A DNA stretch of 64,000 nt, taken from NCBI GenBank assembly GCA_963539845.1, contig CAUTML010000002.1:31372-95371 (forward strand), written 5' to 3'. Origin of the DNA: an uncultured Candidatus Saccharibacteria bacterium (GTDB lineage Bacteria > Patescibacteriota > Saccharimonadia > Saccharimonadales > Saccharimonadaceae). The position numbers were made by a program, and so were the translations under genes. Positions 9,766 to 60,543 of this stretch are shown in pieces (position 1 is the stretch's first letter; each line of letters opens with the position of its first letter). Under the pieces are notes generated by a model. The model was not told the DNA's origin. It worked only from the letters and a program-made list of their open reading frames with translations, and searched no databases.

Positions 9766-9771
9766 AATTTT

Positions 9772-9800: not shown

Positions 9801-9911
9801 CTATTTTATAACTAGACTGCCAAATCACCGAAATCGCCCGCTGATTAGCTGACTCGACTGGGTTTTGTGGCGATTTTATGCTATAATTTGCCTGATTATC
9901 AAAGGAGTTTT

Positions 9912-28301: not shown

Positions 28302-29726
28302 TTACAATACTTTTGGCTGGTTAATATTTGACTGGTTAGATTGAGAAATTACTTGTTGTTTAAATTGTTGACCGCGGTCTTCAAAATTCTTAAAAAAACC
28401 ATAGCTTGGCGAAGCTGGCGATAATACGCAGGCTTTATGAGCAGAAGTTACCCTATAAGCCGTCGCCACTGCTTGTTCTAAATCGTCGACTCGATATTTT
28501 TCGTTGGATAATTGCTCAAAAATCTGATGCCCAGTCGTCGGCAAACAAATCAATTTCAAAGCTGGGCGCTGATTGAGGTAGTTTATCATCAGTTGGCGAT
28601 CGATCCCCCGATCCTGACCGCCGATAATCACCGTTTGGATATTAGAAATCGCCTCAATCGCCCGTTCCATCGCCTCAGGAATGGTTGAAATTGAGTCATT
28701 GTAAAAATCAATCTCGCGAAACTTGCCGACATATTCCAGCCGATGTTCTAAACCAGCGAACTCCGCAATGGCCGTTTGCGCTAGCGGTAGATTATCGGCG
28801 GTCAGCCCCACTATTTCATCGGCCACGATTAGCGCCACCAGCGAGTTTAATAAATTGTGCCGTCCCCGCAGTTTACGCTCAAAATCAGCTGGCAACAATA
28901 TCTGCTGACCATTAGCGTCAATTCGAACAATTTGTTGAGTTTCAGCGTCCAAAAAAATCCCCGCTTCCTGGTGCGCCTGATTAGTTTTTAAACCAAAACT
29001 GCGAATTTTATCGGCCTGAAATTGCGAGCGGTGCTGTTTTAATAATTGATTATCGCAACCGTAAATCGCCAAACGTTGTCCTGGCAAGCTAATTAACTTC
29101 AGCTTAGCCGAAACATAATCCGCAAAATCAACATAATGATCGAGATGCTCCTCAAACAGATTGATCACCACCCCAATCGCCGGCGCCACGGTAATATTTT
29201 CCGCCTGATAGGATGACATTTCATAAACAAACCAGCCCTCGCCATCATCTTGCGCCAGCATCTCTAAGGCCGGCTGACCGATATTGCCAACTAGCTGAGT
29301 TTTAACGCCCAACTTGGTTAACACGCTAGCCGTCAGCGAACTAGTAGTGCTTTTGCCTTTGGTGCCGGTAATAGCAATCGTCCGATGAGCTTGGGTTAGT
29401 AGCAGTTCGTTGGTTTGCGAAGTCAAGCGCCAGGCTTCAACCTCGAGTAACTTAGTGCGACTCACACCCGGCGTCCGAAAAATCAAATCAAATTGATTAA
29501 GCGCCGTTGCTGATTCCGGACGAAACTGGCTTAGTTCCACAGCTTCGTTGGGATGTTCCGCCTGCCAGTGTTTGAGCGAGACTAAGTTTTCGTCGACAAG
29601 TGTCAGTTGGTCAGTCACCCCCATCTGTCGCAACCAGCGATATGACGATTGACCTTCCCGACCAAAACCCAAAATAGCTACCCGTTTACCCTGGTAGCGA
29701 CGGGCGTAAAACTCTTTAAATTCCAT
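28302..29726 (-). CDS. murD: Mur ligase of the MurD family; N-terminus of the MurD2 (L-Glu-adding) type
   Basis: ITGTKGKSTTSSL P-loop and Mur ligase middle and C-terminal domains. The N-terminal GKRVAILGFGREGQS matches the GxGREG signature I associate with Xanthomonas MurD2 rather than the GLGxSG of canonical MurD. It overlaps the upstream gene by 11 nt. Confidence 0.65.
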   Translation of the reverse strand: MEFKEFYARRYQGKRVAILGFGREGQSSYRWLRQMGVTDQLTLVDENLVSLKHWQAEHPNEAVELSQFRPESATALNQFDLIFRTPGVSRTKLLEVEAWRLTSQTNELLLTQAHRTIAITGTKGKSTTSSLTASVLTKLGVKTQLVGNIGQPALEMLAQDDGEGWFVYEMSSYQAENITVAPAIGVVINLFEEHLDHYVDFADYVSAKLKLISLPGQRLAIYGCDNQLLKQHRSQFQADKIRSFGLKTNQAHQEAGIFLDAETQQIVRIDANGQQILLPADFERKLRGRHNLLNSLVALIVADEIVGLTADNLPLAQTAIAEFAGLEHRLEYVGKFREIDFYNDSISTIPEAMERAIEAISNIQTVIIGGQDRGIDRQLMINYLNQRPALKLICLPTTGHQIFEQLSNEKYRVDDLEQAVATAYRVTSAHKACVLSPASPSYGFFKNFEDRGQQFKQQVISQSNQSNINQPKVL

Positions 29727-31194
29727 ATTTAGCGCACTCCTTGTGTAATTTTGCTAATAATTCAGCCGGCACGGCGTGATGTTGGTCGTGAGCCAATTTA
29801 ATGGCGTCTAGATCATATTCAACAAATTTTTGTAACAAAATCGGCATAGTTGTAGTTTGGTGATCAGCAATCGCACCTTCAGCTGAATAATGACGCTCAA
29901 CAATCAAGCGCATTGCCCGACGCACTTCACTAACCGTGCCAACACATTCGAACGGCTTCGTCTGCTCAAGCCCCAATAATTGACGCAAAATCGGCAACAA
30001 TTGCTCATCCGCCAATAAATCTTTGCCAAACATCGCCACTACCCGATCATAATCAACGAACCCAGCCATCATAATAAACACAAATAAACATTTCGGACAA
30101 TGACCGCACCAGCTGTTGGTTTTTTTGCCAACATTACAACTGCGAAACAGCTGATGATAAGCCGGATAGTGACTAAACAATCCCGCAATCTGTAGTTCCT
30201 CTAGTGGTCGCAACAAACTAAAGTAGTCAACTCCCTCCACTACAAATTTAGCGATATAATCCCGAAAATCAGCCTCAAATTCCCAACTTTTTGAATATTG
30301 ATGATTAAAATCCGTCCCCGGCACCGAGGGCTCGTTGGCGGAATTTTCGTTAGACAGCGTGATGTAGCGTTTACCGGTCACTACTGCTGTCAACAGACTA
30401 ATAAAGGCTAAAATCGCCGAAAATGGCACATGACCATTTAGAAATCCAGCTTGATTGAGAGCTAAAATCTGCGGGTCGAGTTGACGCTTGATCTCAACAT
30501 AATTAGTATAGCCAGCCGCCGCTATGCAGTCATATGACGCCACTGGCGCACTCATCACCAGTGGTAAATTGTCAGCAACTTGATCACGCAAAATTTCCAG
30601 AGTAACCGCCGAATCTTTGCCTCCGCCGACCGGAATAAGATTGCCAGTGCCAGCCACTGTGATTTTCGGATAAATTGTTGATGACGTTGTGGTAAATTTT
30701 ACAATATTATCGGCAGTTAGCTCCAGCCCGGCCACCTCTGGCCGATGGAGTTGATTGACATAAATAAACTCGCCCAGACCTTTATAGGCTAATTTTTGCC
30801 AAAACAACTGCATTTCGGCAGTTAATTGACCGCAAGCCAACTCAATTACCGCCGGACAAGCTAGTTTCCAGTAATTGATCGCTTCCACCACCCCAATTTG
30901 AAAAATCACGCCCGCCAAATCGTCATTTTGAACCAAAGAACCAGTTTTTAAGCCTAACTCTAAACGATGAGTAAAGGTTTTAGTCGTTAATTGATCAAGC
31001 CAGTCCACCGTTTCACCAGCAACAACACCGTCATTTGCATTGTTAATCAGTTCTTGACGCATCGCCAGCCGTTCCGCTTCATTTGCCACCAGCTGATAAT
31101 CAAACTCCAACAGCAACCGCCCATCGCGCCATTGTTGACGCCAGCCAGCAAACACTAGTTTTTGGTAAACTCGTCGTAAATCCCGAAAATTCAT
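29716..31194 (-). CDS. Candidate MurL-like UDP-MurNAc-L-Ala-L-Glu epimerase (PP-loop-like ATP-binding protein)
   Basis: 492 aa with an IPVGGGKDSAVTLE PP-loop-like motif and a C-terminal Cys motif CGHCPKCLFV. It is translationally coupled to the MurD2-like ligase. The assignment rests on context plus motifs, not on an alignment. Confidence 0.4.
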   Translation of the reverse strand: MNFRDLRRVYQKLVFAGWRQQWRDGRLLLEFDYQLVANEAERLAMRQELINNANDGVVAGETVDWLDQLTTKTFTHRLELGLKTGSLVQNDDLAGVIFQIGVVEAINYWKLACPAVIELACGQLTAEMQLFWQKLAYKGLGEFIYVNQLHRPEVAGLELTADNIVKFTTTSSTIYPKITVAGTGNLIPVGGGKDSAVTLEILRDQVADNLPLVMSAPVASYDCIAAAGYTNYVEIKRQLDPQILALNQAGFLNGHVPFSAILAFISLLTAVVTGKRYITLSNENSANEPSVPGTDFNHQYSKSWEFEADFRDYIAKFVVEGVDYFSLLRPLEELQIAGLFSHYPAYHQLFRSCNVGKKTNSWCGHCPKCLFVFIMMAGFVDYDRVVAMFGKDLLADEQLLPILRQLLGLEQTKPFECVGTVSEVRRAMRLIVERHYSAEGAIADHQTTTMPILLQKFVEYDLDAIKLAHDQHHAVPAELLAKLHKECAKYGI

Positions 31195-31242: not shown

Positions 31243-34200
31243 CTAGCCACCGATTTTTTGACCAAATGGATCAGCGTTAGCCGACGGGAAACAATCAAAA
31301 CGATAGCGCGCCCCGAATCGATTACCGATAATAGTTTGACCACTGACATAATTAGCCCGATTTTGAATATCTTTGCGATTGGTGTATTTTTTGGCGCCGG
31401 TCTGGATCCAAGTGATATCGCTAAAACTATCATGTTCGTCAGCAACCGTTAGACGTTTTCCACCACGTAACACCTCATCAACCGCTTTAATCATCTCTGC
31501 GGTTGGGGCGCCGTAACAATTGCCTCGATTACACTTCCGACCGGCTTGATATGAGCGTCGAACGTTGTATTTGTTAAACCATCCTGAATTTAATAAATAA
31601 TCTTTAGGCGAGGTAAATTTCTTGCTTTTATCGGTCAAATTAGCTAACAGCGAAGCCTCAAATGCCAGAGCTTTAACATTGCTACCCTGCTCACTCATCA
31701 TCGCTGCGGTAATTCGTCGAATTTCATCATCAGTTAGCTCGGTATAACGACGCGACGTTCCAGCCGGCGGTGACTGACAACCATCAGCATCACGTTGACC
31801 ATTGTTCGGTGGCAAATCTGACGAACCCAATTGATTGTTATCGCTAGCCACATTACCAGCTGTAGCATATTGTTGGCCAACCATATCGCCAGCACAACCC
31901 TGGTTATCATCTAGCATGCATTGTACCCGCTCATCCATAAAATACAGCGCAAATATAATTCGACGCTTCTGTTCATCGCTTAAAACACCATTAACGTCCG
32001 ATTTGCCTTTTAAAACACATTCTTGACCGCTGTTGATCAATTTACCGAACAAGCCACCAAACAACCGCTCGCCCAACCGGACACCGTCTCTTGTTTCGCC
32101 CAATTCTTTATCACCTTGCGACGCCATTTCGTCAAGTTGTTGCATACCATAGGGCACTTCACCGCGCTCAATGCAGTTGATTTTAAACGATAATAGCGGA
32201 TTTAAAACATTGCGTTTTAAAACATTAAAATATTTATAATTCGGATCAACCGGCGAACTAACGCCCCACTGAGGTTGAGTTAGGTGCTTATCGGTATAAT
32301 ACAGCTCATTCTGACCATTTTGACCCTTCTCTGTGACAAATTTCTGTTGCACAAAATAGCCATTTGACGATTCACGATCATCAATCGCCCATTCAAATTC
32401 ATAATTCAAACCAGTTTCATCCAAACAAGGGTTATCTTTTTGTTCGGCGGTGTTTAATCCAGCAAAACCCTTAGAAACCACTCGACCATCACTTAAAATA
32501 ATCGGTACTAGCGAGCATTCCTTGCCGTTTTTATCGACTGGTTTAAAATAAGTTTTGCAAGTTTTTGTGCTGCCATTATATTCACAGCCAGCGTCTTTTA
32601 AAACACCGTTGATATATTTCTCAATTTCGCGACCTTTAGCGCGAGCTTGCTGATAATTGCTAACCCGACCAGCGCCGTCATAACGATAGTTAATGGTGTA
32701 ATCTTTTAGCGTAGTAGTCAGTTTGCCGTTGGCGTCTTTTTCATAAGTATTTGGTGCTAAATATTCCAAAACTCGATGTGGACTATAATCACTAGAGTTA
32801 CTTTCAGTCTGAGGCACGCCTAGCATCATCGAACAGAACGGATACATGCCGAGGCGATCTTTCGGATTAGAATTGTTCAAACCAGCAAATGATCGATATT
32901 CTGGATCTTGGCAATAATTCATTGTTCGGCGCATAGCTTCGATTTCCTCCGCCCCCGACAAAGCCGACACGCGAGGCAAAACCGCCGTTAAAGATTTCAA
33001 ACCATACGACCAAGTACTGCTGATTCGACCAGCAAAACTATGCATTCGTCCCATATACGGCAAACTACCCGCCAAAATACTGCCCATTAGCGTGTGCCGA
33101 GTAGTCATATCAAACGGACTGTGGGTTTGGCGAATCATGGCAGCTTTTTTGTTAATTAGGCTTTTTTGCGCAAAAGCTTGCTCAATGGCGGAGTTTTGCC
33201 CCAGTGGTAAATTACCACTACCCTGGGCTTGTTTATTGCTTAGTTCCGCCGTTCCAGTAGCCAAGGCGTTGACCATATCTTGTCCTTGAGTTTTGCTATT
33301 GACCCAATTACCGCCCAAGCCGTTTTGTAGTTCGGTCGACATCCAGATTTTTGCCCCCAAAAAGAAAGCAGTAACTCCGACTTGTTTAGCAATATCAACC
33401 ATTTTTACAGCAACTGGGCCAACAAAGCCCGTCGAAAGTGCTAAAATCACTTGCCCCACGATCACCAACGCCTGAACTTCAAAACTGTCCATCACCCGGC
33501 AGAATTGACTAACATTTAACCCTAGTTTTTTGGCTTGGTTTTCGATGGATTCTTTAATTTTTAAATAACCTTTAATCGCTCCTTCGTCATTGACACCCAA
33601 CTGCATTTTACGAAAAGATTCGTTCGGCGCATCCATATAACCATCCGTCATAAACCGATATGCCTGCGAATCAAAACCATTCATCTCATAATCAGTTATT
33701 TCCCGACTACCATCAGGATTATTGGTGGTAATTGGATTAGTGGCCATAATTTTGTTTAAATACATAGTCATTTCTTCTTCGGTCGACTCGCCCGCCTTAA
33801 TAGACGACGCCATCGTCAAAAACCCAGCAGCATACCGACTGAGATGGACTGATTTAGCCACTTTAGCGCTATAAATCAGTTTGTTAGCCAGATTATAAAA
33901 AGAACAAGCGTCGCTAATGCCGTCAATCGCGTTTAGCATTTTCCCAATTCCAGCGTGAGAAGTCTCGCCGACAAGCTTCGCCGAATTAGCGTCATCCAAA
34001 GAATCTATAGCTTTCGTAAGTTTAGCTTCTTTATCCTTTAACGTCTCGAGAGCCTCGCCACTGTGATTACCACTTTCGATTTCACTCTTAACATGGTCAA
34101 GATCGTTTTGCAATTTAGCCTTGGCATTGTCGGGTGTTTCGGTCCCATTGCGCACTTTGTCGTCTTGTTCGGCTTCTAGTTTTTCCTTGCTTAAATCACC

Positions 34201-35016
34201 ATCTTTAACTTTTGATGATAAAGGCTCAAATTTGATGCCTAGACGCTCCCGAATCGATTTAGTGATTTTATCACTATACATTCCGAACTTGCCCCTACTG
34301 GCATTAAAATGCTTATTGTGCCATTCCGGATCGGCTAATAATCGATCGTTAAAATCGGCAGCGTTGGTGATTTTACGCCAGCCTCCGGGTGCGTCTGGAT
34401 CATCAATTTCAACGCTAACAATCCGTTTACGACCAAAAGAAGCTTCTTCTAGCTCAAATTTATAACCTTGGGCTTCCCATAGTTCAATCTGTTTTTGGCT
34501 CATTGTTGAGAAACGATGATGTTTTTTACCAAAACCGAGCCGTGATTTTCGGGCTTCGATAAAATCATTTGGACCGTGTGATCGCTTAAAGCGATAAACC
34601 GATAATTTTCCGACTCGAGTGCGAGTGTTAAGACTTTGGATGTCAAACGTCTCAGTTAATCGCTCAGCTAATTGCAACGGCACTAGCGCCGGGAAAGCCA
34701 TTGACAACCCAGTAACCAAAGTTACTAACAGACCACCAAATAGTGCCCACGACGGACCTGATTTTTTAACAAAATTAGCCAAATTAGCTAAAAATTTGCC
34801 AGAGGATTCACCTGCCGAGGGTTGATAATTAAATTCATTGCCTTGATTCTCAGCAAGACGCGCCTGATTAACATCATCAATCCCCCCGACCACTGACTGG
34901 TCATCGCCATGATCAAATAAGTACTGCTTAGGCATTGATGTTCGGTAAGGATTGTCCTCGTTAAACATCGCGCGGTACTTCTGCTCCACTGGATTACGAT
35001 CTCGTTGACTGGCCAT
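31243..35016 (-). CDS. Giant polytopic membrane protein of unknown function (1257 aa), with a possible C-terminal cell-wall-hydrolase-like domain
   Basis: The ORF is open to 35058, but the terminator of the upstream gene abuts it and TGGTATAAT precedes ATG 35016 (MASQRDRN...). It has a TM helix near residue 100, a coiled-coil region, a hydrophobic core (…VQALVIVGQVILALSTGFVGPVAV…VTAFFLGAKIW…) and a Cys-containing extracytoplasmic C-terminal half. Confidence 0.8.
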   Translation of the reverse strand: MASQRDRNPVEQKYRAMFNEDNPYRTSMPKQYLFDHGDDQSVVGGIDDVNQARLAENQGNEFNYQPSAGESSGKFLANLANFVKKSGPSWALFGGLLVTLVTGLSMAFPALVPLQLAERLTETFDIQSLNTRTRVGKLSVYRFKRSHGPNDFIEARKSRLGFGKKHHRFSTMSQKQIELWEAQGYKFELEEASFGRKRIVSVEIDDPDAPGGWRKITNAADFNDRLLADPEWHNKHFNASRGKFGMYSDKITKSIRERLGIKFEPLSSKVKDGDLSKEKLEAEQDDKVRNGTETPDNAKAKLQNDLDHVKSEIESGNHSGEALETLKDKEAKLTKAIDSLDDANSAKLVGETSHAGIGKMLNAIDGISDACSFYNLANKLIYSAKVAKSVHLSRYAAGFLTMASSIKAGESTEEEMTMYLNKIMATNPITTNNPDGSREITDYEMNGFDSQAYRFMTDGYMDAPNESFRKMQLGVNDEGAIKGYLKIKESIENQAKKLGLNVSQFCRVMDSFEVQALVIVGQVILALSTGFVGPVAVKMVDIAKQVGVTAFFLGAKIWMSTELQNGLGGNWVNSKTQGQDMVNALATGTAELSNKQAQGSGNLPLGQNSAIEQAFAQKSLINKKAAMIRQTHSPFDMTTRHTLMGSILAGSLPYMGRMHSFAGRISSTWSYGLKSLTAVLPRVSALSGAEEIEAMRRTMNYCQDPEYRSFAGLNNSNPKDRLGMYPFCSMMLGVPQTESNSSDYSPHRVLEYLAPNTYEKDANGKLTTTLKDYTINYRYDGAGRVSNYQQARAKGREIEKYINGVLKDAGCEYNGSTKTCKTYFKPVDKNGKECSLVPIILSDGRVVSKGFAGLNTAEQKDNPCLDETGLNYEFEWAIDDRESSNGYFVQQKFVTEKGQNGQNELYYTDKHLTQPQWGVSSPVDPNYKYFNVLKRNVLNPLLSFKINCIERGEVPYGMQQLDEMASQGDKELGETRDGVRLGERLFGGLFGKLINSGQECVLKGKSDVNGVLSDEQKRRIIFALYFMDERVQCMLDDNQGCAGDMVGQQYATAGNVASDNNQLGSSDLPPNNGQRDADGCQSPPAGTSRRYTELTDDEIRRITAAMMSEQGSNVKALAFEASLLANLTDKSKKFTSPKDYLLNSGWFNKYNVRRSYQAGRKCNRGNCYGAPTAEMIKAVDEVLRGGKRLTVADEHDSFSDITWIQTGAKKYTNRKDIQNRANYVSGQTIIGNRFGARYRFDCFPSANADPFGQKIGG

Positions 35017-35055
35017 AATTAACTTTATTATACCAAAAAACTTATGCTTAAACCA

Positions 35056-35089
35056 CAAAAACGCCCCAGTTTCATAGCTAGGGCGTTAT
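35056..35089 (-). terminator. Rho-independent terminator after the 1058-aa gene
   Basis: Minus strand: AACGCCC-tagctatgaaactg-GGGCGTT followed by TTTGTGG. Confidence 0.6.
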
Positions 35090-35111
35090 TTGAGTAAAAA
35101 CCTTATTCAGG

Positions 35112-38100
35112 CTAATACCTCGGTGCTACTTCTCTTAGATAAACTGTTTGGACTTGGCCTTTATCGAGGGAGTTGTAATAAGACCAGATGTAGGTTTTAG
35201 GGGTGTGACGGAAGGTTTCGGCTGGTTCGGTTAGTTGCTCTTTGTTAGGTTTGAGCTTGTCGTAATCACTATGAATACCCGAACCATAGGTGCGACGGAG
35301 TTTGACTTGGCCGGCTTTGACTGGACCGGTGATGGTTAGTGGGACTTCGTCTTTATCGATGCCTTTTTCAACAGTATTGGCAGTAACTGGGTTTTGAGAG
35401 GTCATTAGGGCGCCAGTAACAATTAACCAAGCATCAATGTTACGAACCTTGTTATTGATGGTTAAATCACCATTAACGACAATTACCGCTTGGTCAGTAT
35501 TAGCTAGTGAGCCGTGGTTAGCAGAGCTGTTAGCGGAAACATCGCCAGTGATGGTGGTATTGCCGTTATAAACATGAACACCCGATAGACTACCCGCGAT
35601 ATCACCACCGGCGTGGGAAGTGATGGTGGTGTTAGCGTAACGACCGGTTTTGAGATGAGAGAAGAAACTGGCTGGGTCAATCAGTTCGCTCGTGGCGTCG
35701 GCTTCAAATTGACCAAGTTTACCTTGATTGGCGAAGCTGAGGCGGTGCCAAGCTTTTTTGTCGTAAGTGCTTGCACCGAAACTACCGCTGTTGGTGGCGA
35801 ACAGTTTACCGATGTCGCCTTGAGAGATGGCGTTGTATTCTGCCCAGGAACCAGCTCGACGTTGTGGAGATTGGCGACGATTGAGGTTAGTGATGATGTT
35901 TCCGCCAGATAATAGCATGCCGTTTTCAACCGTGAAGAATGGTTTTTTGGAGACTACGAAACAGCGAGGTTGGGAGTGACGCCATTGGGGTTTGTTTTCT
36001 CTGTAGCTTTCTAGGTCTGAGTCGCTTCCAGCATTTCTCCAAGGATAAATTGAAGCCGCGAAACAGACCTTGGTGCCTGATGGCAGAGCTTCAACTTGGT
36101 AAGGCAAATCACCTAAACCGCCTAAATGAGGTTTGACGTTGTCACTGAGTCCGCCTTTGGTTGGCGTGATGTTAGTATGGATTAAACCATTTAAAGCATT
36201 AAAACCTTTTTGAATTGAGAAAGGATCTTCAGTTGAGTCAAATTTATATTCACCCTGAAGGGCGGTTTGACAGATACCTCCCTTTGGCACTTTGAAATGC
36301 TTACAAGGATGTTCATCAACTAGACCAGATAACGGCGTGTTTTCAATGGTGGTGTCAGTTTCTGGCTTGAAGATCATTTTGGTGATCTGCCATTTGGCAT
36401 TTTCTTCGCGTTGGTAATGGTAGCATTGAGCAGTGCCCTGATGTTGGTATTCAACGCACCAACAATCACCTTTCTTACATCTCTCTCTACAGCAGAACCT
36501 TTTAATATCTTCGTTCTCTTTCTTACAGTTTATTTTATTTTCAGGATCGCTTTTACATTTAACATTGCATTGTCGACTTAAGGAATTTTTTACGCTAGCT
36601 CTACTATTACCACAATAACCACCTTCACTAACATCTGGTTTGTGCCAATAGGACCATTGTTTTTTACGAATAACATAGCTATTGATGCCTTTATAATCTG
36701 GCAGGATTGGGTCGGTGATTGAGGCTATGTCTGGAGCTAACGGGAAAACATAAATCGTGCCGTCTGCACCAGGTGCTTCACCGAATTTAATGTCAACACA
36801 ACTAGTTGATTCAGCTGTGAGTTTGCTTTTGGGTGGATCGGGCATATTGTTGGATTTGTCTGGCTTGGCTTGCACGGTGCGACAAATGTGACCAGAGGTG
36901 GCATCGATCGGATACCAAACTTTGTTTTTGTTGGCTTGGTTAATGGTTACTTCTTCTTGGTATTCAATTTGTGCGTAAGGGATGCCTTTGCCTAGGACAA
37001 CGGCTTTTTCGGGTTTAAGAGTTGAACCAACTGTCAAACCATTTGGCTCGACTTTAGTGACTTTGACATCATTTGGATTAAAGTCTAGTTTATCGTAGGC
37101 TCGATTATGACCAGAGAAGCTGTATTTGATAGAAGTGTCTTTGCCGGGAAAGCCTCGTAGGCTTTTGTAGATTTTGTATTTAAAGGTTACTTTAGCTGTG
37201 CCGTTAACGGGTAAAAAGACTGGGTTGGGTTCGCCTTTGACCTGGGCGTCGACTTTGGCGGTTTTGGCATAAACGTTAGCCATGATTGGATTGGCACAAC
37301 GCAAACGCAGAATCCATCGAGCGCGGTATTTTTGGTTGAGGCCATCGGGTTTTTCCCAGACTACCACGGCGAGGCTTTGGCGGACGGGACTACTAGGATT
37401 GTAACCTATCACATCGTTACGATCATCCTTATTAATAGCAGTATTCATTCTTTCAGGAGTAAATTTATCAGTAGATTTATTGACACCTTCATAATATTGT
37501 GCTACCCTCCCATGAGATATCATCTTCTGGACAGTAACTACTTTACTAGTATCAGCGATGAAGTCGGCTTTCTTTTGTTTGTATAAAGATCCGTTATTGG
37601 ACTGACTTTGGGGAACACCGACTAGAGAGTAAGCTAGGAATTTATAGCCGGTTTCTAACCAACTAGCACATTTCTTATAGCGTTTTTTGTAAACTTCCTT
37701 ATTCTTGACAAATTTACGTGGGACTGGAGTGTCGCTTGCAGAGGTTTGGTTATAGGTTTGAATACATTGGTTAATTTCTCCAACATCATCTGGACCTCTA
37801 TTAGGATCATGATATATAGCATAGTAGCGATCCCAGGCAGCATCGAGATTTGGAAGATCAACGCTTTTTAGATTTTCTATATAAGTCATACGATCTTCGA
37901 CAGCTTTAATAATAAAGCCAGCTCCTTGACCTTTAAATACTTCTTGGTAAAGATCGGCATTGGGGTCATTATATAAATCGTAGCGTTGTTGAGCAGTTAA
38001 TTCAGACTCAGGGATACCAACGCGTGGTGGGTCAATCGCATAAGGGACTTCGTGATTAGGATTAGATTGAGTAAACCGATATATAGGTGGCAAAACATTA

Positions 38101-38288
38101 TGATTAGGCACGGCACTACCACGCCCAAAATAACGGCCACCGCCTTTGTCAAAGACACTATGACCTTTAGCTTGAGAGGAGTTGTGCAGAGAAACAGTAG
38201 TTAGTAACCAGCCAGCACCAACTACGCCTACAATTCCTAAACCTAATTTTAGCCAATTTTTATATTTACTCCGATACTTCATGCTCAC
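35112..38288 (-). CDS. Large secreted or anchored protein of unknown function (1058 aa) with a Cys-rich module and a beta-helix-like C-terminal region
   Basis: N-terminal signal anchor (WLKLGLGIVGVVGAGWLLTTV) and SD AGGGAG. It has 11 Cys within 64 aa (36423-36614) and a Gly/Asn/Thr-rich repetitive segment (…GGDIAGSLSGVHVYNGNTTITGDVSANSSANHGSLANTDQAVIVVNGDLTINN…). Confidence 0.8.
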   Translation of the reverse strand: MSMKYRSKYKNWLKLGLGIVGVVGAGWLLTTVSLHNSSQAKGHSVFDKGGGRYFGRGSAVPNHNVLPPIYRFTQSNPNHEVPYAIDPPRVGIPESELTAQQRYDLYNDPNADLYQEVFKGQGAGFIIKAVEDRMTYIENLKSVDLPNLDAAWDRYYAIYHDPNRGPDDVGEINQCIQTYNQTSASDTPVPRKFVKNKEVYKKRYKKCASWLETGYKFLAYSLVGVPQSQSNNGSLYKQKKADFIADTSKVVTVQKMISHGRVAQYYEGVNKSTDKFTPERMNTAINKDDRNDVIGYNPSSPVRQSLAVVVWEKPDGLNQKYRARWILRLRCANPIMANVYAKTAKVDAQVKGEPNPVFLPVNGTAKVTFKYKIYKSLRGFPGKDTSIKYSFSGHNRAYDKLDFNPNDVKVTKVEPNGLTVGSTLKPEKAVVLGKGIPYAQIEYQEEVTINQANKNKVWYPIDATSGHICRTVQAKPDKSNNMPDPPKSKLTAESTSCVDIKFGEAPGADGTIYVFPLAPDIASITDPILPDYKGINSYVIRKKQWSYWHKPDVSEGGYCGNSRASVKNSLSRQCNVKCKSDPENKINCKKENEDIKRFCCRERCKKGDCWCVEYQHQGTAQCYHYQREENAKWQITKMIFKPETDTTIENTPLSGLVDEHPCKHFKVPKGGICQTALQGEYKFDSTEDPFSIQKGFNALNGLIHTNITPTKGGLSDNVKPHLGGLGDLPYQVEALPSGTKVCFAASIYPWRNAGSDSDLESYRENKPQWRHSQPRCFVVSKKPFFTVENGMLLSGGNIITNLNRRQSPQRRAGSWAEYNAISQGDIGKLFATNSGSFGASTYDKKAWHRLSFANQGKLGQFEADATSELIDPASFFSHLKTGRYANTTITSHAGGDIAGSLSGVHVYNGNTTITGDVSANSSANHGSLANTDQAVIVVNGDLTINNKVRNIDAWLIVTGALMTSQNPVTANTVEKGIDKDEVPLTITGPVKAGQVKLRRTYGSGIHSDYDKLKPNKEQLTEPAETFRHTPKTYIWSYYNSLDKGQVQTVYLREVAPRY

Positions 38289-38348
38289 TCCCTGTTTAGT
38301 TAACGTTACTTGACTTCATTATATCATAAGCATAATTAAAGTTAAATT

Positions 38349-38379
38349 AAAAAACCAAAGCTTAAAGCTTTGGTTTTTT
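38349..38379. terminator. Near-perfect palindromic terminator
   Basis: AAAAACCAAAGC-ttaaa-GCTTTGGTTTTTT lies between the 368-aa and 1058-aa genes. Confidence 0.7.
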
Positions 38380-38394
38380 AGAGGACTACATAAA

Positions 38395-39501
38395 CTAAAA
38401 ACCTTCGAAGCCCATTAGCATATTACACATCAGCCTATCTAACATAAGAACGTCAACATTACCAAATCGAATTCGAAGTGGATGATCGGGATCAACAAAA
38501 GTCTGAGGAAAAATATCGATTCGTTTTAATTCTAAAAGCATTTTAAGTTCTTCCGCAGATATTTTATCCACATCACTTGAATTGAATGGATGATTATGCC
38601 AATTACCTTCTTGCATTTGATTTAAATCAACGCCCATATACTCAGTGTAATAGAGATAGACGGTCTTGGTTAATAATGAAGCTTGCATTGGAGCATCCAT
38701 TTGGTCACCGATGTTACCATCAGGCCCAATTAGATCTTTGAACATCGGGGTTTTGCCGAATTTAGCCCACAGAATATAATCTGGTGAGCCTTGTTTGTTG
38801 CGTAGATCGAGCGGAATATTGCGCTCATCCGAATTTGGACTGAGACGCAATGCTCGGGCAAATTCCAGCATTATTTCACGGGTGGTGACTTCTTGATCCC
38901 AATTGCCTTTGTACAAATTGTTATACTGAGCTTTAATACGCACTAGTGGTATAGTATCATCATCATAACTAGAGACAAAATTATCCACGATTTGTTTATC
39001 CGATACTTTTACCCTTCCTGCTCTCACATCATCCCTGTAATCTGGCACCGGGTTAGGATAAGCCGGTGGTAGAGCTTCTCGAACAAAAACACCATCAATG
39101 TCTGTGTTAGTTGATGAACTTTTGAAATGAGAGTCAATCAACACTCGTTTGTTAGCTGGTTGATAGTCTAAACTAAGACCCAGGGCTTCTAGGGAACGAA
39201 GTTTAGCATAACTAGCTCCATTGACAATGGCGATATCTTGATTAGCTTCAGATAAAACAGCTTGTCTGTCGTTGTAATTGACAGTGGCAGTTTTAGTAGC
39301 ATTGTTCCAAGCTACATTAGCGCCTAGGTTTTCTAGGTCACGAATTGGTACCATCGCTCGTCCTTTGATTACCAGAGCTTGTCCTAAGGTTTGACCTTGG
39401 ACTAACACTGGGATGGTTGGATAAGCTTCGTCAGCATAAGTTAGGCCAGTTGTTGCCATAACTAAACTTAATACAGTTGCCATAATTGTTCTTTTTTTCA
39501 T
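38395..39501 (-). CDS. Secreted protein with a copper-amine-oxidase-N-terminal-like (stalk) domain and an unknown C-terminal domain
   Basis: Signal peptide MKKRTIMATVLSLVMATTGLTYA|DEA. The segment VLVQGQTLGQALVIKGRAMVPIRDLENLGANVAWNNATKTATVNYNDRQAVL matches the Cu_amine_oxidN1 repeat pattern common in Firmicutes envelope proteins. Strong SD GGAAGGAGGGAG. Confidence 0.7.
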   Translation of the reverse strand: MKKRTIMATVLSLVMATTGLTYADEAYPTIPVLVQGQTLGQALVIKGRAMVPIRDLENLGANVAWNNATKTATVNYNDRQAVLSEANQDIAIVNGASYAKLRSLEALGLSLDYQPANKRVLIDSHFKSSSTNTDIDGVFVREALPPAYPNPVPDYRDDVRAGRVKVSDKQIVDNFVSSYDDDTIPLVRIKAQYNNLYKGNWDQEVTTREIMLEFARALRLSPNSDERNIPLDLRNKQGSPDYILWAKFGKTPMFKDLIGPDGNIGDQMDAPMQASLLTKTVYLYYTEYMGVDLNQMQEGNWHNHPFNSSDVDKISAEELKMLLELKRIDIFPQTFVDPDHPLRIRFGNVDVLMLDRLMCNMLMGFEGF

Positions 39502-39615
39502 GATATTACTCCCTCCTTCCGCTTATTTAGCGGATAATAATAAAATAAAAAATAATGTGAAAAAATAATTAGCCAACAGTAAAGATTAACCTTGATCTAA
39601 AACTTAAGCTAATTT

Positions 39616-39655
39616 GTTAAAAAACTATTAAAGTCTAATCTAAACTAGACTTTAA
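39616..39655 (-). terminator. Rho-independent terminator after the 256-aa gene
   Basis: Minus strand: TTAAAGTCTA-gtttagat-TAGACTTTAA followed by TAGTTTTTT. Confidence 0.6.
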
Positions 39656-39690
39656 TTTATTATAGCATAAAAGTATGAGGAATGCAATAG

Positions 39691-40461
39691 TTATTTTTTA
39701 AATACAGCGTCTAACTCTTCTTCGCTAGTCGGAAACTCATAGACATCCAAGTCCGAAGTGGGATCTTTGGCGATAGCGTCCTGATGCTTTTGCTTGGCGA
39801 TTTTGAACAATTCAATGGCTTTGGCTCGATCGTATTTAACATATTCAACCGCCAAATCCTGAAAAGTGATATAATCGGCGTTATATTTTTTGGCTTCTTC
39901 CACTAGTTTATCAAGTTTAGCGACGATATCTTTAGCACCCAGTTCCGCCTCCAAGGTGTTTCTAATTTTTGACTGAAGCAGTTCGTTAATTTTGTCATCA
40001 GGTAGCTTTTTGCCATCGTCACTGTTTAAAACATCATTGATTTTTTTGAGGCGCAATTCCGCACGACAAACCCGCTGGCCGAAATCATCACCAGCTCCAT
40101 TACAACGCTTAATATCGAGCTCACCCCCGATGGCTTGATTGGTTTTTTCGATGGCCGTGGCTATTTCTTTACGACGGAGCGCTTCTTCAGCGGCTTTTTT
40201 GTCGTCTTGACGCTTTTTAAGCACTGACCAAACCACTAGTCCAATCACCGCGCAAACCACCATCACCGTGACAACTGATCGAACAGTCCATTTTTTGACT
40301 TTTTTGAGTTCGGTTTTGTTGGTTTCAACTGAAGTGTCTTTAATCTTCTTAGCTGGTTTAGTCGGCCGCACACTAGCTAGCTCCTGCTCCATCGCCTGTT
40401 GCTTAGCTTTTTCCTCAGCCTCGTGGTCAATAACCAGGGTAGTTTTTTTCTTAATCGCCAT
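39691..40461 (-). CDS. Bitopic membrane protein with a Lys/Glu-rich helical ectodomain (unknown)
   Basis: 256 aa with a basic N-terminus, one TM helix (VVTVMVVCAVIGLVVWSVL), charged helical segments and SD AAGGGGA. Confidence 0.65.
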   Translation of the reverse strand: MAIKKKTTLVIDHEAEEKAKQQAMEQELASVRPTKPAKKIKDTSVETNKTELKKVKKWTVRSVVTVMVVCAVIGLVVWSVLKKRQDDKKAAEEALRRKEIATAIEKTNQAIGGELDIKRCNGAGDDFGQRVCRAELRLKKINDVLNSDDGKKLPDDKINELLQSKIRNTLEAELGAKDIVAKLDKLVEEAKKYNADYITFQDLAVEYVKYDRAKAIELFKIAKQKHQDAIAKDPTSDLDVYEFPTSEEELDAVFKK

Positions 40462-40551: not shown

Positions 40552-41208
40552 TTAGCTTAATTGTTGCCAATCAAGCGCCTGCTCTACTCGATAATCAGCA
40601 ATTTGCAAGCGACGCAGGCTCTGACAATACGCCCCCACCCCTAGCGACTGCCCCAAATCAACCGCCAGTGACCGAATATAGGTGCCCGAAGAAACATGAG
40701 TGCGAATGGTCAAACGCGGATAATCATAATCAATCAATTCCAAACTGTAAATCGATACCTGGCGCCTCGGCATTTCGACGGTTTTACCCTGACGTGCCAA
40801 GTGATAAGCTCGCTGACCGTTAATTTTAATAGCGCTAAACACTGGTGGCGTTTGCCAAATTTGCCCCGTTAGCGCTACTAGGGCGCTCTGCACGGTAGCT
40901 AGCGATGGTTGCTGACGCGCTCGATAGCGAAACCGACCCTCAACATCAGCGGTCGAACTGGTTTTGCCCAACACAAAAGTCGCCTGATAAACCTTATCTT
41001 GTTTGGAGAAGTCTTGAGCCCGACGGCACATTTGACCAGTCACCAAAATCAGCAAACCAGTCGCAAACGGATCAAGCGTTCCGGTGTGGCCGACTTTAGC
41101 TTTTTTACCAAGCTGTTGAGATAGCTGATAGCGAACCTTAGCAACCACCCCAAAGCTAGAGATGCCACTGGGTTTATCAACCAATACTAGACTATCGTTT
41201 TGAATCAT
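40552..41208 (-). CDS. truB: tRNA pseudouridine(55) synthase
   Basis: GHTGTLDPFATGLL catalytic Asp motif. 218 aa, short form without a PUA domain. Confidence 0.9.
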   Translation of the reverse strand: MIQNDSLVLVDKPSGISSFGVVAKVRYQLSQQLGKKAKVGHTGTLDPFATGLLILVTGQMCRRAQDFSKQDKVYQATFVLGKTSSTADVEGRFRYRARQQPSLATVQSALVALTGQIWQTPPVFSAIKINGQRAYHLARQGKTVEMPRRQVSIYSLELIDYDYPRLTIRTHVSSGTYIRSLAVDLGQSLGVGAYCQSLRRLQIADYRVEQALDWQQLS

Positions 41209-41214: not shown

Positions 41215-43371
41215 CTACTCCGGAATAACAAATTGGTTTTCCGGAACTGGAGCTTTAGGAGCTGGCTGTTTTAAGCCAATAGCTTGGGCTTCTTGGGGAG
41301 TTAATTGAGCGTTCAAATCTGGTTTAGGCGAAGCCGGAGCGGAGTCAGCTGATGTCAGCGGAGTTGAGGGTGCAGTTGGCGCTGGAGTTGGCGATGTCAC
41401 TGGAGACGAGGCAACGGCGGGCGCTGGGGCTGGCGATGTTGCCGGAGTTGCTGACGCTGGTGCCGTGTTTAAAGCATCAAACGGATTATTGTCAAAACCA
41501 ACTTCCACCGGAGGCAGTCCAGTCATCGTCAACTGATCCAGAGCCGGAGGCATTGGCGGAAGCGGTGGTGGCAAATCCAAACCAGTCGGCATTGGCGGAA
41601 CAGTCGGCGGAGCCACAGGGCTCAGCTCCCGCTCGATTTGCTCAGTAAGCGACGGACCAGTTTCGGGTTGTTTAGCTAGCGGTCGAATAACTTTGCCCGA
41701 TTTCTTTTTTAAATTAGCTCGTTTGGGTTTGGGCGAAGTTTTGGGAGCGGTTGATTCCGTAGCCTGAGGCAAATCAACTGGCGTTTCGAGATAACCACCG
41801 AGTTTATCAGTCGTTAAGTCAGACTTTTTTGAGGTTGATTGAGCCAGAGCGGTTTTGTCATCTGAGTTGTCTAACGAAGTGGAATTAGCAGAAGTCTTGG
41901 TTTGAGGTTCAGCCACCTCCACCGGAGGTTTAACGGCCATTGGAGGCTCAGGCGGTTCAGCTTGTTTCAATTCATCAAGACCGGCCTGGCGAGCCTGATC
42001 GGCTTGAGCCTGACTCTGTTTCATTTTATCCAAAAAAGCTTGTTTAAACTGATTGACTTTGTCCCAAGATTCATCTTTAGTTTTAGCTGAACCAGTTTTT
42101 TGTTCAACAGCCGGAGCCACCGGAGTGGTCGCCTCGCCTAAAGTCGGTTCAGCTGGAGAAATTGGGGCTACGACCGGCGGTTCAATCGGCGCTAACTCTG
42201 GTGCTTCAATTGGCGTTGATTCTGGTGTAGCATCGGTTTTGGGCTGAGAATTTTGAACCATTTTGTCAATCAACTGGTTTAAATCAACCGCTGATTGCTG
42301 AGACTGAGAACTAGCCTCAGCTGGCGCCTTGGCGGTTTGAGCTTCTGGAGCTAAGATTGGGGTGGTCGAAGGCGCTGAGGCGACTACTGGCGCTGACGGT
42401 TCAGTCGATTCAGCTGGAGATTGATTAGTCTCCACCGTTGAAATAGTTTCTTTATGATTAATCACTGCCTCATGTTCTAACTTTTTTTCTGGTTCGGCCG
42501 GAGTTGCTTCAGTCGGAGCGGAAGTCGGCTGATTTTTAAGCTGATTTTGACGGTTATTAAGAGTCTGTTTGAGCTGTTCAATGCGATTCGGCTCGTCTAG
42601 TTCTTTAGCAATTAACTGCTGATTAGCCCCCTGCCCCATCAACACCGCCGCCAAACTCATAATTTCTGGGGTGGTTAAATTATTACTAAACCGCTCGGTA
42701 ATCGACACTAACCCGGTCATCAACGCCGTCGCCACTGAACTATCAATCAATACCGTATCAACTGGTTGACCAGTTTCGTCCAGTTTTGGATCAAGATTGA
42801 GGCTTAAATCAGCCACAATTTGAGCGTAAGATTGCAAAGCCGGTTCTTGCCAGTTCAGATTGCCCAGCTCAGTCAAAGCCGAACCAACCCCAATCGACGC
42901 CACAAAAGCACTATGCAAAATACGTCCGTGCGCCTCGAGAGCTTTATCGAGATCAGCTTGGTTTTGTACCCCTAAAGCAATCACCAAATCCACATTGTAA
43001 TCGCCTTGACTAAACTCCAAATCATCAACCGTCACCGCCCCTTTGCTAGGGGTAATCGACACCCGCACCATACCATCAACCACTTTAGTGCGCACCCGGT
43101 CGGCTTTTTCCGGATTCAAGGCAATAATAAAATCACGCAAACCATCAACTGTTTTATCAAAAAACTTATTAGGCTCAAGAAAATTAAGCACGCTCGGCAC
43201 TTCACCACTGAAAATCGTCGTCACATGATCGTTAGTTTTGTTTAAAATCAAAGTTAAACCTAGCGCCGAAGTCAGCTCGTCAATGGTCGGATTAGCACTC
43301 AGTGCCACCAAAATATTCTCAGATTGCTTGATTTGTTCGATAAGAGCGTCGCGCGCGCTAGTGTTGTTCAT
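41215..43371 (-). CDS. Protein with a degenerate DHH/NrnA-like N-terminal domain and a ~390-aa Pro/Ala/Thr/Ser-rich disordered tail
   Basis: The first ~330 aa are collinear with DHH phosphoesterases that often precede truB, but the DxD and DHH motifs are not visible (SANPTIDELTSALGL). The remainder is low-complexity (PAPAPAVASSPVTSPTPAPTAPSTP…). Confidence 0.55.
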   Translation of the reverse strand: MNNTSARDALIEQIKQSENILVALSANPTIDELTSALGLTLILNKTNDHVTTIFSGEVPSVLNFLEPNKFFDKTVDGLRDFIIALNPEKADRVRTKVVDGMVRVSITPSKGAVTVDDLEFSQGDYNVDLVIALGVQNQADLDKALEAHGRILHSAFVASIGVGSALTELGNLNWQEPALQSYAQIVADLSLNLDPKLDETGQPVDTVLIDSSVATALMTGLVSITERFSNNLTTPEIMSLAAVLMGQGANQQLIAKELDEPNRIEQLKQTLNNRQNQLKNQPTSAPTEATPAEPEKKLEHEAVINHKETISTVETNQSPAESTEPSAPVVASAPSTTPILAPEAQTAKAPAEASSQSQQSAVDLNQLIDKMVQNSQPKTDATPESTPIEAPELAPIEPPVVAPISPAEPTLGEATTPVAPAVEQKTGSAKTKDESWDKVNQFKQAFLDKMKQSQAQADQARQAGLDELKQAEPPEPPMAVKPPVEVAEPQTKTSANSTSLDNSDDKTALAQSTSKKSDLTTDKLGGYLETPVDLPQATESTAPKTSPKPKRANLKKKSGKVIRPLAKQPETGPSLTEQIERELSPVAPPTVPPMPTGLDLPPPLPPMPPALDQLTMTGLPPVEVGFDNNPFDALNTAPASATPATSPAPAPAVASSPVTSPTPAPTAPSTPLTSADSAPASPKPDLNAQLTPQEAQAIGLKQPAPKAPVPENQFVIPE

Positions 43372-46537: not shown

Positions 46538-48352
46538 TTACTCCACCGTCACTGATTTGGCGAGGTTGCGTGGTTTGTCAACATCTTGACCGAGAGCGTC
46601 GGCAGTGTGATAAGCTAACAATTGCATCGGCAAAGCCGACACCAACGCTGATTCAATCAAATCTACCGCCGGAATATCAATCACGAAGTCAGCCAGTTTA
46701 GCCAGTTCGGCAGATTTAGAAATCAGGATAATTTGAGCGCCACGGGCCTTAAGCTCCTCGATATTAGATTTAATTTTATCAAACAACGTCGGCTCGGTCG
46801 CCACCACAATAACTGGGGTTTTTGGTGTGATTAAAGCAATTGTGCCGTGTTTTAGCTCGCCCGCCGGAAACGCCTCGGTGTGAATATAAGAGATTTCCTT
46901 GAGTTTTAAAGCACCTTCCATCGCCAGATAAGCATCCATCCCCCGCCCGATATAAAAAGCACTGGTTTGGTTTTTGATAGCTTTGGCAATTTGCTGATAA
47001 ATCGCTTGGTTTTTAAGGATTTTAGTTAATTTAGCCCCAATCTTAGCTAAGTTATCAATTGCCGACTGATAAAAATCCGCCGAAATTTGCTTGCGTCGTC
47101 GAGCTAAATCCAGCGCCAATAGTCCAAAAATTGCCAGCTGAGTAGTGTAAGCCTTGGTGGAACAAACCCCAACCTCTGGTCCCGCCCAAGTATAAAGCAC
47201 CGCATCAGCCAAGCGCGTAATCGACGAACCAACCACGTTGGTAATAGCCAAGGTTTGCGCGCCAGCCTGTTTGGCTTTTTTCAGAGCACCGAGCGTGTCA
47301 GCCGTTTCGCCTGATTGACTAACAGCAATAACCAAAGTGTGCTGATCGGTGAAATTTTTTTGATAACGATATTCCGAAGCGACTAAAGACTCCACCGGCA
47401 AACTAGCCAAATTCTCCAGTAGTTTTTTGCCGTACAATCCAGCATGATAAGCCGTACCGCAGCCAATAATTTCGATTCGTTGAATGGTATTTGGGTTAAT
47501 TTTGTCAAAAATTTCTAAATTAATTTGACCTTTGGCGTCGAGCCGCGGATTGATGGTTTTTTTCAGGGCTTCAGGCTGTTCGTGAATTTCTTTTAGCGTA
47601 AAATGCTTAAAACCACCCTTGGTAACCGCGTCGGCGTCCCAAGTGATGGTTGTTGATTGACGCTGGATAGTTTTTAAATTAAAGTCAAAAAACGCCACAC
47701 CGGTGTCGTCAATTTTAACAATATCACCGTCTTCGAGATAATAGACTTGCTTGCCCAGGCTTAAAATTGGAGCGACGTCTGAAGCTAACATCGCTTGCGA
47801 GCCAGCCACCCCAACCACTAGCGGGCTTTCTTTGCGCACACCAATTAAACAGTTCGGCGCTAAGCTAGAAACCACCCCCAGGGCGAACGACCCCTGGAGC
47901 TGACGCACCGCCTGAGCCACTGCTTCTAGCAAATCGCCAGTCATATATTGATCAATCAGATGGGCTACCACCTCGGTATCAGTTTGGGAGCGAAATTTGA
48001 CACCTTTTTTAGTCAGCTGAGTTTTTAGCTCTTGGTAGTTTTCAATAATACCGTTGTGGACCACGGCGATAGTTTTAGCTTGGTTAGTGTGCGGATGGGA
48101 GTTAGTCTCCGACGGCTGACCATGCGTCGCCCAACGAGTATGGCCGATGCCGATATCGCCAGTTATCTTTTTATCTAAAACTTTAGCTTCGAGATCCGCC
48201 ACTCGACCTTTAGCCTTAGTGATTTGCAATTTATTTGGTTTAATTATCGCCAAACCAGCCGAATCATAACCTCGGTACTCTAGTTTTTTCAGCCCATCAA
48301 TAACAACTCGTGGCGCGTTAGTTTCGCCCACAAATCCAATAATTCCACACAT
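46538..48352 (-). CDS. glmS: Glutamine--fructose-6-phosphate aminotransferase
   Basis: MCGIIGF… Ntn amidotransferase N-terminus, two SIS domains and the C-terminal …KSVTVE. Confidence 0.95.
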   Translation of the reverse strand: MCGIIGFVGETNAPRVVIDGLKKLEYRGYDSAGLAIIKPNKLQITKAKGRVADLEAKVLDKKITGDIGIGHTRWATHGQPSETNSHPHTNQAKTIAVVHNGIIENYQELKTQLTKKGVKFRSQTDTEVVAHLIDQYMTGDLLEAVAQAVRQLQGSFALGVVSSLAPNCLIGVRKESPLVVGVAGSQAMLASDVAPILSLGKQVYYLEDGDIVKIDDTGVAFFDFNLKTIQRQSTTITWDADAVTKGGFKHFTLKEIHEQPEALKKTINPRLDAKGQINLEIFDKINPNTIQRIEIIGCGTAYHAGLYGKKLLENLASLPVESLVASEYRYQKNFTDQHTLVIAVSQSGETADTLGALKKAKQAGAQTLAITNVVGSSITRLADAVLYTWAGPEVGVCSTKAYTTQLAIFGLLALDLARRRKQISADFYQSAIDNLAKIGAKLTKILKNQAIYQQIAKAIKNQTSAFYIGRGMDAYLAMEGALKLKEISYIHTEAFPAGELKHGTIALITPKTPVIVVATEPTLFDKIKSNIEELKARGAQIILISKSAELAKLADFVIDIPAVDLIESALVSALPMQLLAYHTADALGQDVDKPRNLAKSVTVE

Positions 48353-48535: not shown

Positions 48536-48558
48536 AATCTTTTAATTAGCTTAAGTTT

Positions 48559-59873: not shown

Positions 59874-59894
59874 CGTTTTTCTCCTATATTTTGT

Positions 59895-60533: not shown

Positions 60534-60543
60534 TATTATTCTC

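Follow-up and report, generated by a model that had tools for sequence, protein, structure and literature searches.

A Saccharibacterial membrane scaffold with exchangeable enzyme heads and its conserved partners: a candidate envelope module related to type IV secretion loci

Introduction

How do ultrasmall epibiotic bacteria pass not only their own cell wall but also that of their Actinobacterial hosts, which is thick? This question is touched by a cluster of four genes, here called A, B, C and D, in a stretch of 64,000 nucleotides (nt), the window, from an uncultured Candidatus Saccharibacteria bacterium (GenBank assembly GCA_963539845.1, contig CAUTML010000002.1, positions 31,372 to 95,371 of the forward strand). 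All four open reading frames (ORFs) are located on the minus strand of the window: A at 31243-35016 (1257 amino acids, aa), B at 35112-38282 (1056 aa), C at 38395-39501 (368 aa) and D at 39691-40461 (256 aa). An initial annotation had described them as co-oriented genes for envelope proteins of no recognisable family, inserted between mur genes and truB, and had put them forward as a candidate host-contact system. Orientation and place are as described, with a MurD-type Mur ligase gene (28302-29726, minus strand) and a MurL-type gene (29716-31194, minus strand) immediately on the downstream side of A and truB (40552-41208) flanking D, and an envelope nature is supported for each of the four products.

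The central protein of the cluster is A, a member of a large family that is characterized by variable C-terminal heads and that has paralogues in loci for type IV secretion systems (T4SS). In related lineages A is linked to B and D. On balance, B, A and D probably constitute a lineage-specific envelope module that is built on a T4SS-derived, wall-cutting scaffold.

The A family and type IV secretion loci

In an exhaustive phmmer search with A residues 58-1257 as query, counted in representative clusters, the A family comprises 808 clusters at E <=1e-3 and 352 at E <=1e-10. Nearly all matches align to A residues about 60-760, and residues 58-760 are the part held in common with members encoded in T4SS loci. 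One such member, in the locus designated L005, carries a Peptidase_M23 domain and lies 12 nt behind a gene for a VirB4-like ATPase (TraG P-loop, E 1e-28; AAA_10); it is followed by two small genes, a Phage_lysozyme2 gene and a PEGA gene. A is 25% identical to this protein over 782 alignment columns (E 3e-46) and also matches a T4SS-locus member of L006 (E 7e-39). In L006 as well as in L010, a gene of ~620 aa comes after two or three TrbL_3 genes and is followed by a gene for a ~1100-aa protein, an A-like gene, a gene of ~200 aa and a second A-family paralogue, the latter matching the A-family profile with E 9e-111 (L006) and E 7e-108 (L010). Lysozyme and PEGA genes come after the second paralogue in L006, while the L010 stretch ends at a partial, unannotated 626-aa gene. 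L005, L006 and L010 correspond to the type of Patescibacterial T4SS locus that PMC12102498 describes.

The two-paralogue stretches extend over positions 6548-18427 of L006 and 6616-18793 of L010. The ~1100-aa protein, whose gene immediately precedes the first A-like gene in both, combines a signal peptide with an outer part that contains Cys residues and with a polytopic segment. It was considered as a relative of B and rejected, as comparisons with hidden Markov models and hhalign were negative.

In S. epibionticum, SEML1_0007 (1113 aa) directly follows virB4 (SEML1_0008), is itself followed by a lysozyme gene, and has a Hedgehog/DD-peptidase fold at residues 951-1105 (PMC10633639 supplement). 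Its score in transposon sequencing (Tn-seq), GD/ES/ES, is taken as essential (PMC10633639, Wang et al. 2023; PMC12102498); genetically, the T4SS locus was found to be essential, the gene that follows virB4 included (PMC10633639). By gene order, size and head type, not by sequence comparison, SEML1_0007 appears to belong to the same family as A. The truB region of S. epibionticum contains no gene of the size of A or B (PMC10633639 supplement).

Orthologues of A form a subfamily that is sharply apart from the T4SS-locus members (E <=1e-139 versus about 1e-35 for the rest). On sequence grounds, A is a paralogue in a large Patescibacterial family, encoded on the chromosome away from the T4SS locus; its scaffold has probably been duplicated out of that locus and, in one clade, has a secreted partner of its own. 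In the literature that was searched there is no description of the out-of-locus A subfamily, of the partner B or of the ~180-aa head of A. The absence of a recognisable family, as initially annotated, thus holds for B but not for A and C: A has 808 clusters of relatives with hydrolase heads, and C has a Cu_amine_oxidN1 domain. A separation from known conjugative T4SS parts, on which the idea of an undescribed system leaned, is likewise incomplete, with distant A members lying beside VirB4 and TrbL/VirB6 genes.

Variable heads on a common scaffold

A Pfam scan of 42 long A-family members reveals a changing repertoire of C-terminal heads. Peptidase_M23 is found in 19 of them, Exo_endo_phos in six, VanY in three and CHAP in two; Amidase_2, Glucosaminidase and Peptidase_C39_2 occur in one member each. 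Names given to family members in the sources reflect the head domain only, as for P0084, named in one source after its Exo_endo_phos domain. Exo_endo_phos is a nuclease, phosphatase or phosphodiesterase domain and not a wall hydrolase; P0084 (alignment A5) is among its six carriers. The variation extends to orthologues of A: a Peptidase_M15_4 head is present in L002 (E 7e-17) and a C39_2 head in L008 and L009, and no head at all in L004, P0035, P0038 and P0039. Because such head-less orthologues exist, the scaffold must have a function of its own. Judged from these domain assignments, it is a carrier of an exchangeable outer enzyme head, usually a peptidoglycan hydrolase.

The C-terminal cargo domain of the window's A, of ~180 aa, was delimited by family alignment to residues 1079-1254 (31255-31782, minus strand). 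Used alone, it matches ~20 other representative clusters, which range from small proteins to giant multi-enzyme proteins. Their alignment displays the motifs E.G, EASL.CNL, S.WF, GNR, an invariant EHD and DPFG; the invariant residues are G1111, S1122, W1146, R1188, E1194-H1195-D1196, D1200 and D1249, and E1109, E1120 and F1147 are nearly so. Elsewhere the domain is fused to NlpC/P60, CHAP, Amidase_5 or Phage_lysozyme2: P0087 (2249 aa) combines it with Phage_lysozyme2 and P0180 with CHAP, P0111 and P0131 have NlpC/P60 just downstream of it, and P0179 contains two copies. By this domain co-occurrence only, the head of the window's A is probably a cell-wall hydrolase, and the ~180-aa domain with its invariant EHD can be regarded as a new candidate muralytic domain. 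Even at E <=1, Pfam gave no SLT, lysozyme, CHAP or NlpC/P60 match in the window's A, and tblastn of the head against phage and plasmid collections gave none either. A match of the A4 profile to NlpC/P60 was discarded, since fused domains of other members had entered that profile. There is no cognate immunity gene directly downstream of A; the next gene, murL (29716-31194), begins 49 nt past the stop codon.

Architecture of A

The initial description of A as polytopic has to be toned down, as the protein, with about three hydrophobic helices, is not extensively so: one at the N-terminus and a central hairpin. Transmembrane helix 1 (residues 89-114; 34675-34752, minus strand) has a family-average hydropathy of 2.08 at an occupancy of 0.93 and is a helix in the structural model. 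A conserved KK.GP motif just ahead of it indicates an N-in topology. Outer domain 1 (residues 115-511; 33484-34674, minus strand), with a predicted local distance difference test score (pLDDT) mostly of 80-95, consists of a small alpha/beta subdomain and long helices and contains the conserved Cys371 and Cys506. It is succeeded by the central hydrophobic helix hairpin (residues 512-568; 33313-33483, minus strand), recognized by hydropathy, family analysis and the model, and by outer domain 2 (residues 569-1045; 31882-33312, minus strand), delimited from alignments and the model. The latter domain has the motifs SKTQGQDM, SPFD..TRHT.MGS and LYFMDER.QCM, and its Cys702, Cys728, Cys948 and Cys1000 are conserved family-wide. 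Each of the six cysteines (C371, C506, C702, C728, C948, C1000) is present in at least 80% of 131 A-family sequences. Since conserved Cys pairs flank the central hairpin on both sides, the sequence fits an N-in protein with both large domains outside the cell.

The scaffold itself (residues 72-1045) was predicted by AlphaFold2 from an alignment of 81 sequences with a predicted template modelling (TM) score of 0.76 and 471 residues at pLDDT >=90. A Foldseek comparison of this model with BFVD gave no significant match. The A-family profile found no relative among PDB sequences, single-sequence PDB searches with A, B and C returned nothing, and A itself had no significant match in Pfam, NCBIfam or PHROG. 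In scans of all four proteins against these three collections, the domain of C was the sole match. A word-index homology search with the A alignment gave no more than its two close relatives.

Two membrane protein types were compared with A. An FtsX/MacB-like topology, suggested by the large outer domain that separates transmembrane helix 1 from the later helices, was rejected, as there is no FtsX match in A; the true FtsX proteins of the window score well in the Pfam scan, unlike A. As to VirB6/TrbL, about three hydrophobic helices are present versus the five or more expected, and Pfam gives no TrbL match.

Partner proteins

B possesses an N-terminal signal sequence with an invariant Ala38 at the likely cleavage site (SQA|KG), beta-rich and immunoglobulin (Ig)-like middle parts, and a Cys-rich knot at residues about 557-620; the Cys residues of the protein are conserved. 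Its C-terminal 430 aa are conserved best (40-47% identity) and the last 12 residues are invariant (QTVYLREVAPRY). Searches of Pfam, NCBIfam, PHROG and PDB, including a B-family profile against PDB, gave no match. The AlphaFold2 model has a pLDDT of 53, and its Foldseek matches (integrin, Cys-loop receptor) are generic beta-sandwiches with TM <=0.12. S-layer and sortase features are not found: there is no SLH or S-layer domain in Pfam or NCBIfam, and the C-terminus reads ...YLREVAPRY, not LPXTG. Among the species representatives of GTDB the sole match to B is L002, a metagenome-assembled genome of Candidatus Saccharibacteria. Type IV pilus genes, FemAB and a glmS ribozyme in the window, among other traits, are in keeping with this group. 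B is an orphan secreted or anchored protein. Since it also accompanies the head-less A of L004, it cannot be an immunity protein for a particular head.

In C, a signal peptide is combined with a Cu_amine_oxidN1 domain (PF07833) at residues 40-98 (E 1.3e-10, 41.6 bits versus a cut-off of 24.2); its C-terminal part has no assigned domain. D is bitopic: a single transmembrane helix (residues 63-81) joins a cytoplasmic tail rich in Lys to an outer domain that is helical.

Conserved linkage of B, A and D

In L001, L002, L004 and L014 the gene immediately upstream of A is B, and in L013 the two are one gene apart, so that the association is seen in all six lineages examined, the window included. Homology of B was confirmed in each of these five loci, at 34-47% identity, and A is 41% identical to its relative in L001 and 27% to that in L002. 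The order in L001 is S20, a 717-aa gene, TruB, D, a C-like gene on the opposite strand, B, a gap of 4 nt, A, MurL and MurD. L002 reads TruB, D, B, 4 nt, A, a 378-aa gene on the opposite strand, MurL and MurD, and L004 reads TruB, D, a 289-aa gene, B, 78 nt with a hairpin, A, MurL and MurD; the TruB, MurL and MurD labels in these two loci were assigned from gene size and order. Two short contigs of about 7 kb contain B, a D-like gene and A (L013), and B, A, MurL and MurD (L014). D homologues are found next to truB in L001 (32% identity), L004 (37%) and L002 (31%), and the gene between B and A in L013 is a weak D homologue (22%, E 2e-7).

The behaviour of C is different. Compared with the 329-aa gene on the opposite strand in L001, C is alike in the N-terminal domain only, and BLAST gave no match between C and the 378-aa protein of L002 or the 289-aa protein of L004. 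C-like genes move and invert, and there is none in the short loci L013 and L014. As far as the compared loci go, the stable unit is B-A with D, and C is a loose neighbour. The clustering that had been proposed for the quartet is thereby conserved for B, A and D only, and it persists in relatives where A is 27-41% identical. It does not extend to the more distant Saccharibacteria L008 and L009, in which S20, a 772-aa gene, TruB, an A-like gene with a C39_2 head, S15 and PNPase occur without B, C, D and MurL. A alone is the older resident of the position after truB.

Gene boundaries and transcription signals

The frame of A stays open to TTG 35058, a codon beside a terminator hairpin. P0001, which is 97% identical to A, has 1256 aa, and ATG 35016 was taken as the start for this reason. 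For B, the listed ORF begins at GTG 38288 and gives 1058 aa; ATG 38282 seems the likelier start, since it is preceded by an AGGGAG Shine-Dalgarno sequence and since P0003, 100% identical to B, has 1056 aa. The MurL-type protein (492 aa, 29716-31194) was not recognised by the local Pfam copy. It is 62% identical to the product of the L014 gene, which has precomputed MurL_N and MurL_epimerase_C matches. The MurD-type and MurL-type genes overlap by 11 nt (28302-31194, minus strand).

Strong hairpins after the three upstream genes and TGnTATAAT boxes before A and B had been taken as signs of independent expression. Both kinds of site are present. All lie on the minus strand, and the hairpins are far more stable than shuffled sequence. 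The hairpin between B and A (35060-35087; -19.0 kcal/mol, z -4.3) has 10 pairs, 6 of them G-C, and is followed by TTTTGTGGTTT; the terminator hairpin after C (38348-38380; -17.4 kcal/mol, z -6.2) has 15 pairs and precedes a U-rich stretch. The hairpin after D (about 39627-39656; -12.3 kcal/mol, z -3.7), with the U-run AGUUUUUU behind it, is AT-rich and for that reason a weak terminator. Extended -10 boxes are found ahead of A (TGgTATAAT, 35027-35035) and ahead of B (TGaTATAAT, 38318-38326), the latter followed by AGGGAG and ATG 38282. B and C have clear Shine-Dalgarno sequences. A has none: only 10 nt separate the end of its -10 box from ATG 35016, and its mRNA would thus be nearly leaderless.

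Over the whole region, promoter-like sites (27 versus 22 +/- 4.3 in shuffles) and terminator-like sites (10 versus 11.4 +/- 3.8) are not in excess, so that the argument relies on the position of the sites and not on enrichment. Moreover, the interpretation in terms of independent expression is confined to part of the lineages. The B-A gap of 78 nt in L004 contains an analogous hairpin, and in L001 and L002 the gap is only 4 nt; separate transcription of B and A is therefore specific to the lineage of the window.

Functional interpretation

If B, A and D form an envelope module, it could be imagined to work as follows. The ~1000-aa scaffold of A, composed of a cytoplasmic tail, a transmembrane helix, outer domain 1, a hydrophobic hairpin and a disulfide-stabilised outer domain 2, would be seated in the membrane of the epibiont and hold its head outside the cell. 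In one Saccharibacteria subclade it would have gained two fixed partners, B and D. With B as an extracellular partner, A would position a hydrolase so that peptidoglycan is opened locally, and a contact or transport structure could then get through the opened wall. The barrier to be crossed may be the epibiont's own wall, the host wall at the site of attachment, or both. We infer that the window's head is enzymatically active and that A, B and D are physically in complex, and likewise which wall is targeted. The scaffold in question is widespread (808 clusters), has no match in PDB and receives interchangeable wall-cutting heads; if the head is directed at the host, the spectrum of heads could help to predict host range.

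Several observations weigh against this reading. The T4SS loci examined contain no B homologue, and the connection between A and SEML1_0007 is made by gene order and size, not sequence. Pfam scans of the flanking genes and of 20 other ORFs of the 64 kb, with about 18 ORFs of >=100 aa (none >300 aa) unscanned, found no VirB4, VirB6 or TrbL gene, and the secretion-type genes of the window are type IV pilus genes at a distance of 25 kb. Foldseek found no PDB match for the scaffold model (best E 0.46, TM <=0.08), so that a mechanism cannot be read from the fold. The head is unlike any known hydrolase in Pfam, NCBIfam and PDB searches, its model is unusable (pLDDT about 30), and there are orthologues that have no head. 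In the window, the presence of a terminator and a promoter in the B-A interval speaks against strict co-expression.

A host-contact role of the cluster, as originally put forward, is possible. Rapid turnover of heads, the occurrence of non-wall heads (Exo_endo_phos) and the paralogy with T4SS-locus proteins favour a role in conflict or one directed at the host, while the position beside murL/murD, the head-less orthologues and the lack of an immunity gene favour a housekeeping or structural role. In the latter direction, A with B and D might be an autolysin that remodels the epibiont's own peptidoglycan in growth, budding or division, as a membrane-tethered hydrolase complex with a logic like that of FtsEX-PcsB or CwlO. 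M23 heads are typical of division hydrolases, and such a function would suit the stable core-genome position between truB and murL/murD across lineages, the proximity of FemAB (18901-19962) and FtsK, and the absence of an immunity-like gene after A. We nevertheless consider it rather unlikely, in view of the A paralogues in T4SS loci, of a head turnover between close lineages, Exo_endo_phos included, that would be unusual for a housekeeping autolysin, and of the other Saccharibacteria that keep A without B and D; S. epibionticum apparently has no A or B gene after truB. At the other extreme, B-A-D could be a previously undescribed, self-standing drill, rooted in the membrane, made by Saccharibacteria from a T4SS scaffold and working independently of the T4SS, with an exchangeable head tuned to the chemistry of the host wall and with B contacting the host, that breaches the host wall at the attachment site. 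We regard this as unlikely.

The kinship with T4SS-locus proteins leaves room for A, and perhaps B, to be an alternative subunit of a T4SS whose genes would lie at another place in the genome; Rickettsiales, with their scattered and duplicated paralogues of extended VirB6, provide a precedent. The common scaffold, the two paralogues each in L006 and L010, by which multiple scaffolds per system appear normal, and the structural role implied by head-less orthologues all agree with it. The subfamily of A is, however, sharply separate (E <=1e-139 versus about 1e-35) and has its own conserved position and a partner, B, that is absent from T4SS loci, which renders such a spare part distinctly improbable. 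Very unlikely, in our estimation, is a chance neighbourhood of four unrelated envelope genes in a gene-dense genome. Each gene does have its own hairpin and promoter-like site, C is an unstable neighbour, and reduced genomes keep gene order broadly anyway, but the adjacency of B and A outlives rearrangements, with C moved to either side or inverted and D inserted between B and A in L013, and the gap between the two genes is 4 nt in two lineages. A lineage-specific module of B, A and D on a T4SS-derived scaffold consequently remains the explanation that we put forward.

Other features of the window

Between S20 and truB lies a 718-aa ORF (41215-43371, minus strand) with a long Pro/Ala/Thr/Ser-rich C-terminal half and no match in the Pfam scan. 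A large gene is also present at this position in L001, L002, L004 and L008, encoding 717 aa (L001) and 772 aa (L008) between S20 and truB, and 675 aa (L002) and 588 aa (L004) just ahead of the gene taken as truB. The S. epibionticum counterpart has been assigned a DHH phosphoesterase fold (PMC10633639 supplement).

The clearest adhesin-type giant surface protein of the window is encoded outside the four-gene cluster: a 1624-aa protein (48634-53508, minus strand) with five DUF285 repeats and cadherin, Big_9, He_PIG and Bact_surface_Ig-like domains. A type IV pilus block (529-9828, minus strand) includes PilC-like T2SSF (2662-3870), PilT-like (3880-4947), PilB-like with MshEN (4965-6740) and PilM (8704-9828) genes. 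A glmS ribozyme (48393-48543, minus strand; Rfam RF00234, 90.5 bits) is located directly upstream of glmS (46538-48352), and two FtsX/MacB-type permease genes (458 and 425 aa; 58497-61821, minus strand) lie beside a histidine kinase gene (56422-57744).

Comparison with known systems

The tape-measure and tail proteins of phages, such as Pb2 of T5, resemble the A family in being long and helical, in containing hydrophobic segments and in bearing, at the C-terminus, an M23-type or lysozyme head that serves in crossing a wall. A tape-measure protein was the best BFVD match of the A model, at a non-significant level (E 0.9, TM 0.05). Unlike these proteins, A resides in the membrane, held by an anchor at the N-terminus, and its globular domains are stabilised by disulfides. 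With polymorphic toxins A shares a conserved long N-terminal part and C-terminal domains that are swapped among close relatives; unlike them, it has no adjacent immunity gene and no link to T5, T6 or T7 secretion, and head-less forms exist.

The VirB1-type hydrolases (PrgK of pCF10, TraG of pIP501, CwlT, TcpG) are membrane-anchored like A and, as is probable for A, expose muralytic domains outside, in a modular and variable arrangement. They open the wall for a secretion apparatus, and a likeness of A to them in this respect is proposed. They consist mostly of an anchor and enzyme domains (SLT, lysozyme, CHAP, NlpC/P60, LytM), whereas A has a ~1000-aa scaffold without PDB match. Having no SLT, CHAP or NlpC/P60 domain and not being encoded in a T4SS locus, A is outside the VirB1-type class.

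Closest to A are the SEML1_0007-like peptidases of T4SS loci, which resemble it in size (about 1000-1300 aa), in the C-terminal head, a putative enzyme in A, and in their monoderm Patescibacterial setting. The N-terminal scaffold is common to A and this T4SS-locus family, as tested against the L005 member (E 3e-46). The T4SS-locus proteins carry M23 or M15 heads, as opposed to the unnamed head of A. Unlike the SEML1_0007-like genes, A resides outside the T4SS locus, between truB and murL, where it represents a distinct subfamily paired with B and D, partners that are absent from T4SS loci.

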